DNA of 64,000 nucleotides, taken from positions 46,376 to 110,375 of the forward strand of contig CAZSOZ010000004.1 of NCBI GenBank assembly GCA_964608675.1, written 5' to 3'. The notes under the pieces were generated by a model. That model ran no database searches. It was given only the letters and a program-made list of their open reading frames with translations, and was not told where the DNA came from. Both the position numbers and the translations under genes were made by a program. The stretch's first letter is position 1, and every line of letters begins with the position of its first letter. This document shows positions 4,258 through 36,872 of the stretch, in pieces. The DNA comes from an uncultured archaeon (GTDB lineage: Archaea; Iainarchaeota; Iainarchaeia; Iainarchaeales; 1-14-0-10-31-34).

Positions 4258-5567
4258 GCGTCACAGATAATTCAAGAAGAAGTTTAGGAGTTCATTTAAC
4301 TTCAGTAAACACATTTAAAAAATACGTTTTTCCAAAAATTAAAAACAAAATAAATGACTTTATTTGGGTTGACTTATTTGCAGGAGAAGGCAACCTTATT
4401 TTACCTATTCTTGAAAGTATTTCAAAAGACAAAAGAATTCAATTTTTTAAGGAAAACATTTTCTTGTTTGATATTCAAAAAGAAATGGTTAAAAAATCTG
4501 TTGAAAATGCAATAAAATATGGGATACCTAAAGAGATTGCAGAAAAAAACATAATTCAGCAAGATACCTTAAAAAATTTTCCAAAATTTTTACATGAACT
4601 AAATAAACCAATTTTCCATATAACTAACCCCCCTTATCTATATTTAGGGTATATAGGAAAACACAAAGAAATGAATATTCACTTAAGTTATTTTGAAGGA
4701 TATAATAAAGGATATCAAGACTTATATCAAATTGCCTTAATAAATGACTTAAGAAATAATCTACAAAAAATGATTTACATTATTCCATCAAATTTTTTAT
4801 TTGGGGCAGTAATTTCAAACAAAATAAGAGATGACTTTTTACCACAATACAAAATAAATGAAGCAGTAATTTTTGAAAAAAAAATATTTGAATTTACTGG
4901 CACAAATGTAATGATTTGTTTTTTTGAAAAAACTGAAAAATTAAATAGGATAATTGAATTTAATGCAACAAAAATTAACAGCCACGAAATAACAAGGCAC
5001 TATATTTTAACTAAAAAAAACAAATTTAGGGGCGGAAACTATTTTGAAGAATATGTAAAAACAAGAAAAGCAGTTAACCCCCTTGAAGTTAAATATTATT
5101 TAAAACAAGAAGAATTAGAAAAAAACAAAGGAAATAATAAAGTCATTCTTTTAGATTCAAAAAATTATACAGGGAAGAGTTACTCGCAAAAAGAATTTTT
5201 TGTAAACAATAAGTTATTTAATAAAATTAAATCAAATCCTTTGTTTATAAGGACAGTTGATACTGGTTCAGAAGAAGGCAGAGCTGGTTTATACAACATA
5301 AAAAAAACTTTTGAAGTTGACGGAATTTTTGTTAGTGGTGCAACTTACAGAACAAACCCAATACAACTTTTCATTACTCCAACTTTAAAAAACAATGATT
5401 CTGAAAAATTAAAAGAACAATTTAATCAAACTCTTGAAAATTTAAGAGATAAAACTGACAGTGAATTTATGACTACTTACAAATATACTAATGGAACAGG
5501 AAAGTATATTAGAAAGTATTTAGGGTTAAGTCAAGCAAAAAAGCTTTTACAAACAATAATTTTGTAA
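4254..5567 (+). CDS. N6-adenine DNA methyltransferase (gamma-type motif order)
   Basis: Motif I DLFAGEG followed by motif IV TNPPY; long C-terminal target-recognition region; adjacent to an endonuclease gene. Confidence 0.9.
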   Translation: MSVTDNSRRSLGVHLTSVNTFKKYVFPKIKNKINDFIWVDLFAGEGNLILPILESISKDKRIQFFKENIFLFDIQKEMVKKSVENAIKYGIPKEIAEKNIIQQDTLKNFPKFLHELNKPIFHITNPPYLYLGYIGKHKEMNIHLSYFEGYNKGYQDLYQIALINDLRNNLQKMIYIIPSNFLFGAVISNKIRDDFLPQYKINEAVIFEKKIFEFTGTNVMICFFEKTEKLNRIIEFNATKINSHEITRHYILTKKNKFRGGNYFEEYVKTRKAVNPLEVKYYLKQEELEKNKGNNKVILLDSKNYTGKSYSQKEFFVNNKLFNKIKSNPLFIRTVDTGSEEGRAGLYNIKKTFEVDGIFVSGATYRTNPIQLFITPTLKNNDSEKLKEQFNQTLENLRDKTDSEFMTTYKYTNGTGKYIRKYLGLSQAKKLLQTIIL

Positions 5568-26477: not shown

Positions 26478-26558
26478 AATAAAAATTACTTCCAATATCT
26501 TTAATGCTTTTGCTTTAAAAGCTTTTTTTAATGCTTTTTTATATACTGAAATTTTTTT

Positions 26559-26718
26559 GGGGCTGTGGTGTAGCCTGGTCTAGCATTGCGGCTTTGGGGC
26601 AAACTTTTTTTACAAAAAGTTTGAAAAATGGTTTTTGTTTTTTACAAAAACTTATTTTTTATTAATTTAAAGGTTTGCAAATTAGCCGTTGACCCCGGTT
26701 CAAATCCGGGCAGTCCCA
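26559..26718 (+). tRNA. tRNA-Pro(TGG) with 85-nt intron (26599-26683) at position 37/38
   Basis: GGGGCTG/CAGTCCC acceptor stem; GCGGC-TTTGGG|A-GCCGT; canonical bulge-helix-bulge (TTTG pairs with CAAA, then CAAAC/GTTTG). Confidence 0.93.
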
Positions 26719-26734
26719 ATTATTTTTTTTTTAG

Positions 26735-34392: not shown

Positions 34393-35106
34393 CTATCTGA
34401 CTCCTTCGTATTTTCTGCTTGCTTTTCCAAATAAATGAAAATTTAATGCGTTTTTTAAATGAAAAAAAATATAGTAAAAATAACCCCATTTTTTTACTCT
34501 TCTTGCAGAAACTTTTACTTCACTTTTTGGATTCCATTTAATTTTTCCTGTTTTTTTGAGCCGGTTAAATAAATCCAGGTCTTCGCAGGTAACAAAGGTT
34601 GTGTCAAACCCGTTTATTTTTTCAAATGCAGTTTTTTTTACTGAAAGATTTGAACCCACTGCATTATGCATTCCAATTAAAGAAAAAAGCCATAAAAAGA
34701 AAGGCATTATTATTTTGCTTGTTTTTTTTTCTATTCCGCTTACATCTGAAAAGTAAACGCTGCCATATTGTCCTACTGTTTCAGGGTTTTTTTCAAAGAA
34801 ACTGTAGTTTTCGTGAACCCAGTTTTCTGGAACAATTGCATCTGCGTCAGTAAACAATAAATATTTTCCTTTTGATATTTTTGCTCCTGCCTGCCTTTCA
34901 GCTGAAATTCTTCTCTTTTTTTCTATTATAATTCTTGCTCCAAGGCTTTCTGCTATTTCTGCTGTTTTGTCTTCGCTGTTTCCGTCTGCTACAATCACTT
35001 CATATTTTCCGTGAAATTTTTGTGCATTAATTGATTTCAAACACTGTTCGATTCTTTTCTCTTCGTTCAACGTACAGACAATAACTGATACATCTATTTC
35101 ATTCAT
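34393..35106 (-). CDS. GT2 glycosyltransferase
   Basis: CTLNEE, DGNSED, DAD, CEDLDL, SARR. Confidence 0.92.
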   Translation of the reverse strand: MNEIDVSVIVCTLNEEKRIEQCLKSINAQKFHGKYEVIVADGNSEDKTAEIAESLGARIIIEKKRRISAERQAGAKISKGKYLLFTDADAIVPENWVHENYSFFEKNPETVGQYGSVYFSDVSGIEKKTSKIIMPFFLWLFSLIGMHNAVGSNLSVKKTAFEKINGFDTTFVTCEDLDLFNRLKKTGKIKWNPKSEVKVSARRVKKWGYFYYIFFHLKNALNFHLFGKASRKYEGVR

Positions 35107-35160
35107 TTTATCTTTTAATAAAAAAGCAGAACTAGAATAAAAGCTTTTGTTTGTTTTTTG

Positions 35161-35530
35161 TTAGCCATAAGCAAAGCGAAATAGTATGCTTTTGGTTGTC
35201 ATTGTCAGCTGACACCAGCGCACGATTTTTAATCGTGTTAATATGCTTTTACGGCATGCACTGTTGTTTACAGAAAGAATTGCGAATGGGGACACTGGGA
35301 GTCGAACCCAGATTGCTTGGTTTCCGCCATGCCTTTTTCGAAAAAAGACAAGTTGCCAAAAAGGTTCGCTGAAGCGAACGCCGTGCAAAGCAATGTCTTT
35401 TTTTTTGATACAATTTTTTTCCGAAAAAAGTTGTCTGGAGCCAAGCGGGATAGCCATTACCCTATGTCCCCGAACTGTTCGCTTAGTTCACATGCGTGCA
35501 CTATTTTCGCTGCGTTTGATGCAGTTGCAA
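35161..35530 (-). ncRNA. Candidate structured precursor/ncRNA enclosing tRNA-Trp
   Basis: GC-rich leader and trailer with several hairpins; 35498-35513 is complementary to 35171-35189. Confidence 0.5.
35287..35471 (-). tRNA. tRNA-Trp(CCA) with about 113-nt intron (35322-35434)
   Basis: GGGGACA/TGTCCCC acceptor stem; CTTGG-CTCCAG|A-CCAAG; GTTCGACTC T-arm; splice motif is a relaxed BHB. Confidence 0.9.
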
Positions 35531-35597
35531 TTAAAAAAAGTACTTGGAAAAGTTAATAAATGATTAGAGTATATTTTAATAGATTGAAGGGATTTAA

Positions 35598-36872
35598 ATG
35601 AGGAAGTTGGAGGTATTGTTTTGTTTGCTTTTATTCAGCGGTTTTGCTTATAGTTTGTCGTCTGCTGAAGTAACTAATTTTTTTCGTTCTGAATCTCATT
35701 TTTTGGAGTCTAATCAGTCTTTTAGTGAAACCCCTTTTTTTGTTGAGCATAAAGGAAAAAATTATTGGGTTGTTGTTTTGATTTCAGAGAATACTCCAAC
35801 TGGTTTTGTGGCTGTTCCTTCTGATAAAAAAGAGGTTGTTGAATCTAATTCAGTTAACAGAAATTTGTTTCGTACAGCTTATATTTTGTATTCTGTTAAT
35901 TCTTATAAATCTAATTCCCGGTGGATTTTTTCTAATTCAAATAAAGGAAAATTTAATACTTTATCCATACTTTTATCTGCTGATGTTCCGTTTAAATTGA
36001 ATTCAATTAAAGAAGGAACATCTGATTCTGAAATAAAAAATAAAGTGAATTTAATGCTTTCAATGCTGGATTTATTATCAGAAAAATCAAGTGAAATTGA
36101 ATCTGCTTTTGGTTCTGCGATTCAGTTTGAATTAAATTTTGTTTCCAGTCCTGATTCTTCTGATGCTGATGTTTTAAGAAGCAGGTATGAAAACGTGTTT
36201 TCTTTGCTTCAGGAATTCAAGGAATTGAAATTGAATTATTCTTTGCAGGCAATTGAATTAAAGAAATTGATTTCGGAATCTGATTTAACTCCTAATGAAA
36301 AACAGCAGTTTTTGAATCTTGCTTCTGAGCCCCAGCAGTTGAATTCAATTGATTCAATTTTTTCTTTGTCTGCTGACACCCAGCAGAGAGTTGATGAAAT
36401 TTTTTCTGCTGTTAATGCTAAAGTTAATTCTTGGGTTGATAATGTTTTTGTTATGATTGAAAGAAATAATGCTTTTGAAGAAATTTACGGGCAGGATTCT
36501 GCTTTTTATTCTAAAACAAAAAATAATTTTTACAGTTTGAATGATGCTTATTCTTATATAACTGATGAAGATAATTCGATTTTTTGGAAAGAGCAGGGGA
36601 GGCTTTCTTCTTTTAAAAAAAATTTTTCTGAAGCAGAGAAAGCTTTTGAACAAAAGAGTTATTCAAGAAGTATTTCTTTTGCGGAAAAAGCTAAAGCTGA
36701 TGCAATTGCTGTAATTAATGCAGGTTTTTATGAATCAGAAAATTTTTTAACTAAAAATTTGAGCGTAATTATTTTGGGTTTGGTTGCATTGCTTGTTTTG
36801 CTGATTTTGTTTAACAATAGAAAAAAATTTTTTAAGCCTGCAGAAGAATCCAAACAAGAATTCAAATTTTAG
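35598..36872 (+). CDS. Secreted, C-terminally anchored helical protein
   Basis: Signal peptide, coiled-coil-like body, C-terminal TM plus basic tail. Confidence 0.75.
   Translation: MRKLEVLFCLLLFSGFAYSLSSAEVTNFFRSESHFLESNQSFSETPFFVEHKGKNYWVVVLISENTPTGFVAVPSDKKEVVESNSVNRNLFRTAYILYSVNSYKSNSRWIFSNSNKGKFNTLSILLSADVPFKLNSIKEGTSDSEIKNKVNLMLSMLDLLSEKSSEIESAFGSAIQFELNFVSSPDSSDADVLRSRYENVFSLLQEFKELKLNYSLQAIELKKLISESDLTPNEKQQFLNLASEPQQLNSIDSIFSLSADTQQRVDEIFSAVNAKVNSWVDNVFVMIERNNAFEEIYGQDSAFYSKTKNNFYSLNDAYSYITDEDNSIFWKEQGRLSSFKKNFSEAEKAFEQKSYSRSISFAEKAKADAIAVINAGFYESENFLTKNLSVIILGLVALLVLLILFNNRKKFFKPAEESKQEFKF

Follow-up and report, generated by a model that had tools for sequence, protein, structure and literature searches.

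The leaders and trailers of archaeal pre-tRNAs are usually treated as short, unstructured and unconserved pieces of RNA. RNase P normally contacts a single-stranded leader, small RNAs linked to tRNAs are known, and archaeal tRNA-Trp introns at the 37/38 site can carry a box C/D guide RNA. In Haloferax, a tRNA-like element lies upstream of 5S rRNA and is cut by tRNase Z. Bacterial REP, BIME and REPIN sequences and MITEs are short imperfect palindromes that occur extragenically in tens of copies, in both orientations and often at 3′ ends, and REP/BIME elements have possible roles as stabilisers or terminators. Archaeal rRNA processing stems consist of one long helix, with two 3-nt bulges, between the leader and the trailer of the same RNA. 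According to a circular-RNA sequencing study in Haloferax, RNase P and tRNase Z remove archaeal leaders and trailers, and EndA cleaves tRNA introns and rRNA processing stems at their bulge-helix-bulge motifs, whereby circular products arise; the bulge-helix-bulge-flanked circles reported there are tRNA introns, rRNA precursors and one 5′ UTR (PMC7714728). Complementary flanks are described for split and circularly permuted tRNA genes (Nanoarchaeum, Thermofilum, Cyanidioschyzon; PMC3978253).

The locus considered here is a tRNA-Trp gene in a 64,000-nt stretch of archaeal DNA, called the window below (the whole stretch that was analysed), which belongs to a genome assembly of 1.2 Mb in 53 contigs that is 94%-complete. 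Sequence comparison places the host among the small DPANN archaea, with MAGs of “Candidatus Iainarchaeum” as its nearest named relatives; the glycosyltransferase encoded next to the tRNA is 70–72% identical to MAG proteins, one of these MAGs being titled “Candidatus Iainarchaeum archaeon.” The gene is preceded by a leader module, L, and followed by a trailer module, T. Like archaeal rRNA processing stems, L is a conserved structured flank of a stable RNA that would be removed in maturation, and in this genome it also stands directly before 23S rRNA; unlike these stems, L and T fold locally, usually occupy one side of a gene only, show no co-adaptation within a locus and flank many tRNAs. Both resemble REP/BIME/REPIN sequences and MITEs in being multi-copy palindromic repeats found in both orientations, whereas a covarying pseudoknot, an exact position at stable-RNA 5′ ends and a fixed orientation to the gene set L apart from REP/BIME/REPIN sequences. 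As with the element upstream of Haloferax 5S rRNA, the stable RNA that follows L has its mature 5′ end right at the 3′ boundary of L; unlike that element, L gives no Rfam tRNA match, and it precedes tRNAs that RNase P can process anyway. Compared with split and permuted tRNA genes (PMC3978253), the 3′ and 5′ flanks at the tRNA termini are likewise reverse-complementary and the introns have a “trailer plus leader” look, but tRNA-Trp is contiguous and in normal order, and its complementarity is family-wide, not pair-specific.

The tRNA-Trp gene and its surroundings

The gene lies on the minus strand at 35287–35471, where Rfam family RF00005 matches with 46 bits (gathering score 29, E = 1.7e-8) over the full model, positions 1–71, plus an insertion of 117 nt, and where aragorn -i calls Trp(cca) with a 113-nt intron; the anticodon C34 C35 A36 is read from the sequence at 35438–35436. 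A tRNA-Trp had been proposed here by an earlier sequence-only reading and is borne out by both programs (Table 1). The flanks of 60 and 125 nt given in that reading fit because the 185-nt gene includes the 113-nt intron, of which it made no mention, and they had rightly been called GC-rich: G+C amounts to 45.8% in the leader (35472–35530, 59 nt) and 38.9% in the trailer (35161–35286, 126 nt), against 30.2% in the window. Default ARAGORN and a gathering-score Rfam scan of the whole window both missed the gene, so that under standard scans such genomes seem to be without tRNA-Trp. An intron-bearing tRNA-Pro in the window (~26558–26719, with an 83-nt intron according to aragorn -i) was missed by default scans as well.

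Table 1. Features of the tRNA-Trp region, in window coordinates and in the order in which the minus strand would be transcribed
Feature	Position	Strand	Basis
Divergent ORF, start (intergenic limit)	35598		
TATA-like box TTTATTAA	35553..35560	minus	read in sequence
Leader module L	35472..35527	minus	model R1 match C4:81847-81902(-), 54.1 bits, obtained by construction because the Trp copy sat in the seed
L1 hairpin of leader, degenerate	~35497-35527	minus	
Helix S1 of leader	35494-35496 with 35480-35482	minus	
Helix S2 of leader (GAACT/AGTTC)	35485-35489 with 35472-35476	minus	
tRNA-Trp 5′ exon, positions 1-37	35435..35471	minus	Rfam alignment, aragorn -i, sequence
tRNA-Trp intron, 113 nt, canonical 37/38 site	35322..35434	minus	sequence, Rfam alignment, aragorn -i
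tRNA-Trp 3′ exon, A38 to discriminator A73; CCA not encoded	35287..35321	minus	sequence, Rfam alignment
Trailer hairpin CTGT/ACAG	35261-35273	minus	sequence, trailer fold
Trailer hairpin	35243-35257	minus	sequence, trailer fold
Trailer hairpin CACGATT-AAA-AATCGTG	35221-35237	minus	sequence, trailer fold
Trailer hairpin TGTC-AGCT-GACA	35203-35214	minus	sequence, trailer fold
Trailer module T	35150..35195	minus	model R2 match C4:81525-81570(-), 44 bits, obtained by construction because the Trp copy sat in the seed
T4 and T6 runs downstream of T	35120..35142	minus	read in sequence
Glycosyltransferase ORF, start (ATG; intergenic limit)	35106		

The TTTATTAA box that had been noticed upstream of the leader is present 22 nt upstream of 35530, and L model position 1 follows 25 nt after its end. 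Other copies of L that open a transcription unit have TATA-like words 25–45 nt upstream, and the box is a putative promoter of pre-tRNA-Trp. At the other end, the T4 and T6 runs are a candidate archaeal oligo-T terminator ahead of the ATG of the next gene. BLAST of the tRNA-Trp intergenic region against 41 genomes returned matches limited to the exons, parts of the intron and, in one genome of the same genus, the ends of both neighbouring genes, and this limitation gives a false impression of unconserved flanks, for which structure-aware models are needed. Relative to shuffled sequences, the fold of the whole 370-nt unit has a z of −3.2, that of the trailer −2.1 and that of the intron −2.0, while the leader alone reaches +0.58, with 142 of 200 shuffles folding equally well. 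It is the comparison with other copies that supports a structure of the flanks, and the tRNA-Trp sequence by itself adds little.

The intron can be drawn by eye with two 3-nt bulges, AGA and AAA, around a 4-bp helix with one C·C mismatch, i.e., a putative bulge-helix-bulge that a strict scan for this motif did not return. Like the box C/D-bearing introns of archaeal tRNA-Trp, it is long and located at 37/38; unlike in these introns, GATGA and CTGA words are missing in this genus. Both words are absent from the 185-nt gene, intron included, and a box C/D guide sRNA was rejected on this ground. None of the Trp introns of five genus-level genomes (this one and four others) holds either word, such words are present in the Trp introns of three more distant relatives (L006, L007, L008), and one related Trp locus (L010) has no intron. 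An intron-encoded box C/D guide may have been lost in this genus.

About 13 of the ~45 tRNA genes of the genome bear introns of 70–180 nt, which start with modules seen elsewhere as 3′ trailers and end with leader-like modules, such an intron resembling a trailer fused to a leader. A second type of flank module, composed of an A/T-rich hairpin (AAC, T5–6, loop, A5–6, GTT) and then ATCAAAAAA, opens the tRNA-Trp intron (35410–35434) and is found 3′ of 23S rRNA (L025, ~1100–1160), of RNase P RNA (L026, ~1440–1500) and of several tRNAs; its reverse complement directly precedes other tRNAs. A spurious call of a “tRNA with 478-nt intron” came from contig C39, which is G+C-rich in a genome of 30% G+C and is probably a foreign contig in the bin; the small contig C36 is listed alongside it.

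The leader module L

L is a module of ~57 nt made of a 5′ hairpin, L1, which has a GA-rich internal loop, and of a pseudoknot part, L2, in which two helices, S1 and S2, are interleaved. The last pseudoknot helix reaches to position −1 or +1 of the mature RNA, and to −1 in the case of tRNA-Trp. Searches relied on a model, R1, built from 14 aligned copies of this genome with S1 left out; an nhmmer profile of the hairpin only was too insensitive for counting copies. Paired cells make up 83.7% in the 14 own-genome copies (66.8% in shuffles) and 94.5% in 40 distinct copies from relatives (71.5% in shuffles). Among these 40 copies, both partners have changed in 14 of the 16 pairs, and slid controls fall to 25–54%; S2 is 98% paired with five of its six pairs compensatory, and S1 is 88% paired with four of five, its pairing being an independent test since the search model lacks this helix, whereas the copies are paralogs and relatives, so that covariation counts do not represent independent events. 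As the interleaved helices both covary, L2 can be classed as a predicted H-type pseudoknot, in which the two helices, with linkers of only 1 nt, may form together. The tRNA-Trp copy is among the weakest full copies (54 bits vs. up to 70), with a poorly paired L1 stem.

Two properties of the alignments bear on what kind of element L is. Its stems are ~95% Watson-Crick and G·U is as rare as A·C (4 vs. 3, 1 vs. 1 and 8 vs. 8 in three context classes), which is unusual for an RNA selected on one strand; near-pure Watson-Crick stems fit either an element that folds in both orientations or selection at the DNA level. In the internal loop of L1, compared by eye with the K-turn consensus, YGA stands opposite GAA(K) beside a 2-bp mini-stem that appears to covary, and neither orientation shows a 3-nt bulge. 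Readings of this loop as hammerhead-like or as a K-turn were set aside, as its core letters, judged by eye, do not seem to fit the consensus.

Four copies of L were scanned with Rfam 15 without any family match, the three non-Trp copies giving none at E ≤ 0.1. Over 34900–35800 and at E ≤ 10, the flanks of tRNA-Trp yielded only sub-threshold scores (mir-124, 20.6 bits for a gathering score of 49; CRISPR-DR33, 15.1 for 39). The sequence-only reading had supposed an undescribed structured RNA around the tRNA and had named Rfam and covariation as the checks: at gathering score the tRNA is the sole match and the flanks belong to no family, and the leader is a conserved structured family with covariation both in own-genome copies and in those of relatives. 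No account of conserved structured tRNA flanks in DPANN or Iainarchaeota was found in open-access full text, and the L family seems to be undescribed.

In this genome, R1 has 23 matches, 16 of which are full copies and seven partial (first hairpin only). Eleven of the full copies immediately precede a stable RNA encoded on the same strand, namely 23S rRNA and ten tRNAs (Ile-tat, Ser-gct, Ser-gga, Glu-ttc, Leu-cag, Trp, Gly-tcc, Ala-tgc, Val-cac and Val-tac). Another two, in reverse complement, follow the 5′ exon immediately within the introns of Arg-cct and Tyr, and three more, also in reverse complement, lie at a CDS stop or 25 nt beyond it. All 16 turn their pseudoknot side to the gene, and in this genome none of the 16 is located in the 5′ region of a protein gene. 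When the flanks of all tRNAs of the genome are set side by side, the Trp leader resembles at least ten other tRNA leaders, and the end of the Trp trailer resembles many other trailer ends. One copy outside the window (C4:30692–30748; locus L128, 393–449), located between two ORFs that converge, has a direct repeat of 27 bp on its two sides, a duplication of the final codons and stop codon of the upstream ORF that looks like an insertion footprint.

R1 also matches 21 of 41 related genomes, i.e., all nine of the family (this genome included) and 12 of 32 from other families of the order; families f1, f10 and f24 have L, and none was found in f2 and f27. In a sample of 151 genomes of the phylum, 45 have a match at E ≤ 1e-4, and only one of these 45 lies outside the order. 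In 40 related loci, 41 copies were found and classed by script: 13 abut a tRNA 5′ end (gap −2 to +3), four follow a tRNA 3′ end, two fall within the predicted span of an intron-bearing tRNA, one begins at an ORF stop and the script gave no class to 21, among which, by eye, three precede 23S-like 5′ ends and one precedes tRNA-Tyr. The Trp copy, itself a seed sequence, gains independent support from related Trp leaders, which score 50.6 bits (L005), 41.7 (L006) and 29.1 (L003) with R1. L stands before the Trp genes of G001, G005 (pseudoknot part only) and G007, before Ile-tat in G004 and G007, and before Glu-ctc in G001 and in G017, a member of another family (anticodons as called by aragorn). 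When the same tRNA is compared between genomes of the same genus, the preceding copies differ in all stems, and these differences, together with a range of 23–41 copies per genome in the genus, suggest turnover of L. Tandem tRNA spacers of three relatives (L041, L044, L065) hold a reverse-complemented L and, 9–30 nt on, a forward L; the two neighbours differ in all stems, which argues for local folding rather than a long duplex.

The trailer module T and its complementarity to L

The hairpins that the earlier reading had listed in the flanks (GAACT/AGTTC, CTGT/ACAG, CACGATT-AAA-AATCGTG and TGTC-AGCT-GACA) are all present. The four short hairpins of the trailer are not conserved at related Trp loci, where other hairpins are found instead. 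Module T, at the end of the trailer, contains the GCATACTATTTCGCTTTGC of that reading and has a hairpin core at 35165–35184, with a CTAT/ATGG stem and a pyrimidine-rich loop of 12 nt; read on the opposite strand, T roughly matches the hairpin of L1, loop included. A model, R2, built from eight trailers (Trp and seven others) has 16 matches in this genome, of which nine are at tRNA trailer ends, Trp included, eight of these nine being the seed sequences themselves; four others are copies of L read on the other strand, two lie 16–24 nt after CDS stops and one is elsewhere. Genomes of the genus hold 11–27 matches each. With search filters off, the T hairpin was found in none of the trailers of eight related Trp loci.

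The sequence-only reading had closed the whole unit with a helix between leader and trailer (35498–35513 with 35171–35189). These segments can indeed pair, at −12.1 kcal/mol and with three bulges, but the helix does not appear when the 370 nt are folded to minimum energy. With the trailer dinucleotide-shuffled, 196 of 500 shuffles give a leader duplex at least as good as the best real one; run on leader and trailer in full, this prediction admits very large loops and fails to tell the real sequence from shuffled ones. Among eight same-locus and different-locus combinations, the L1 × T duplex of tRNA-Trp (−14.7 kcal/mol) ranks eighth, the weakest tested; same-locus partners rank fifth of eight for Ser-gga and sixth of eight for Glu-ttc, and are never the best, while different-locus duplexes reach −30 to −50 kcal/mol. 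Most genes with L, 23S included, are without T, and most genes with T are without L. Leader and trailer are complementary because T is roughly the reverse complement of L1, and their helix is best seen as a probable by-product of this mirror relation, not as a co-evolved closing stem. With no co-adaptation within the locus and no T at the eight related Trp loci, the conserved closing stem did not hold up, and a processing stem of the rRNA type was rejected for tRNA-Trp on the same evidence. In the rRNA operon of this genome, an 8-nt word ~100 nt upstream of 23S (L025, ~4310–4320) exactly complements a word directly after the 23S 3′ end (~1150–1160); the two may be part of a conventional 23S processing stem located outside L.

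The idea of an undescribed ncRNA or processing scaffold fared better in one part than in the other. An undescribed precursor scaffold is a fair description of the region; a single larger RNA that hosts tRNA-Trp, comparable to GOLLD, is not, since the same modules flank at least 20 other genes here. GOLLD and other large tRNA-hosting ncRNAs of Rfam were also rejected because only the tRNA matched at gathering score.

Possible roles and origins of the modules

Whereas the comparisons above demonstrate the family membership, structure, positions and taxonomic spread of the modules, what L and T do is something that we infer from sequence. On balance, and by no wide measure, we favour the view that the 370 nt are a pre-tRNA-Trp region with locally folding, lineage-wide end-modules that are cut off by ordinary enzymes. 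The 370 nt would be the primary transcript region of an intron-containing tRNA-Trp gene, with a putative transcription start. Its 5′ leader would be one copy of L that folds locally, and its trailer a chain of short G+C-rich hairpins ending in T, the mirror form of L1, which would likewise close transcription units of other tRNAs and of mRNAs. Serving the precursor as “bookends,” L and T might keep the tRNA domain folded apart from its AT-rich flanks and might protect or mark the ends of the transcript. RNase P would then cut at the boundary between L and the tRNA, tRNase Z would presumably cut at the 3′ end, and the intron would be removed by the splicing endonuclease and RtcB; RNase P RNA (101 bits), one EndA gene (C2:254890–255150, 93 bits) and RtcB (590 bits) are present in the genome. 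A purely structural role as bookends leaves the conserved letters of the L1 and T loops unexplained, and it is strained by the Watson-Crick-only stems, the insertion-like repeat, the turnover of copies and the weak L copy of tRNA-Trp itself. Moreover, a helix that ends at −1 is of no obvious aid to an RNase P that contacts a single-stranded leader.

The main and serious rival is an origin as a repeat family. In this view L and T are palindromic repeats, selfish or neutral, of the REP/BIME or MITE kind, which would be mobile or spread by recombination as DNA and amass at transcript boundaries, where they are tolerated because processing enzymes remove them, any terminator or stabiliser role being secondary; we regard this as a distinct possibility, though hardly the probable answer. 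The multiplicity of L in both orientations, its wide range of copy number within one genus, its patchy distribution across families and the lack of an excess of G·U over A·C all agree with it, as do the direct repeat around one copy, the differences in every stem between same-tRNA copies, as if these had been replaced, and the occurrence of the same kinds of hairpins in leaders, trailers and introns. Against it stands the placement of L. Eleven of 16 full copies are exactly at stable-RNA 5′ ends, although such genes are a small minority, and none is 5′ of a protein gene; the orientation to the gene is constant; and L precedes the same genes across genera and even families. As DNA bears no mark for the end of a mature RNA, exact abutment would be hard to explain by insertion alone. 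Furthermore, no IS200/IS605-type Y1 transposase (PF01797) was matched in the 94%-complete genome, and mobilisation of the REP/RAYT type was rejected for this reason, repeats being present.

Two further readings, both improbable in our estimation, start from the modules as such. On the one hand, RNase P and tRNase Z could release L and T as small stable RNAs that act elsewhere, for example through pairing of L1 loops with T loops or through a protein that binds the GA-rich internal loop. Conserved loops on variable stems, the apparent covariation of the mini-stem, the complementarity of L and T between different loci and module boundaries that coincide with expected cleavage sites would suit such products; however, the conservation of the T loop may just mirror that of L, the internal loop, by eye, misfits a canonical K-turn, and L-derived intron sequence pairs, again by eye, with the other end of the intron instead of folding alone. 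On the other hand, L and its mirror form could, with similarly little likelihood, be recognition modules of one dedicated end-defining system, in which a protein or RNP would recognise the pseudoknot whichever way it faces and cleave at the gene-side boundary. It is an equally doubtful extension that this system sets where tRNAs and 23S begin, where tRNAs and some mRNAs end, and where long introns are spliced, and we give as little credence to long introns being a trailer module fused to a leader module on this account.

Least probable of all is the processing stem of the sequence-only reading, in which leader and trailer pair and EndA cuts a bulge-helix-bulge to give a circular pre-tRNA and a ligated leader-trailer: near-reverse-complementary L1 and T families, strong duplexes between some different loci, EndA and RtcB in the genome, introns that resemble a trailer-type and then a leader-type module, a 4-bp segment between bulges on opposite strands of the closing helix (by eye) and an L before 23S, archaeal rRNAs using such stems (PMC7714728), are outweighed by the weakest of eight duplexes at Trp, the missing T of related Trp trailers, the separate occurrence of L and T, the mismatched stems of adjacent L pairs, the shuffle-level energies outside the minimum-energy fold and closing-helix bulges of 1 and 2 nt, not 3 and 3. 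A strict bulge-helix-bulge scan, whose specificity is low, gave 63 mostly AU-rich, chance-like hits, none with flanking helices, and whole tRNAs are not among the bulge-helix-bulge-flanked Haloferax circles reported in PMC7714728.

With ordinary processing of locally folding end-modules as the favoured view, the flanks of tRNA-Trp stand as a real and apparently undescribed structured feature that is modular and repeated. One tRNA in four, and 23S rRNA too, has L exactly at its 5′ end, and the mirror form occupies 3′ ends and intron starts. If functional, the modules would suggest that stable-RNA maturation in DPANN archaea includes a layer not recognised so far, and the sequence link that they make among leaders, trailers and introns would bear on the kinship of split, permuted and intron-bearing tRNA genes.
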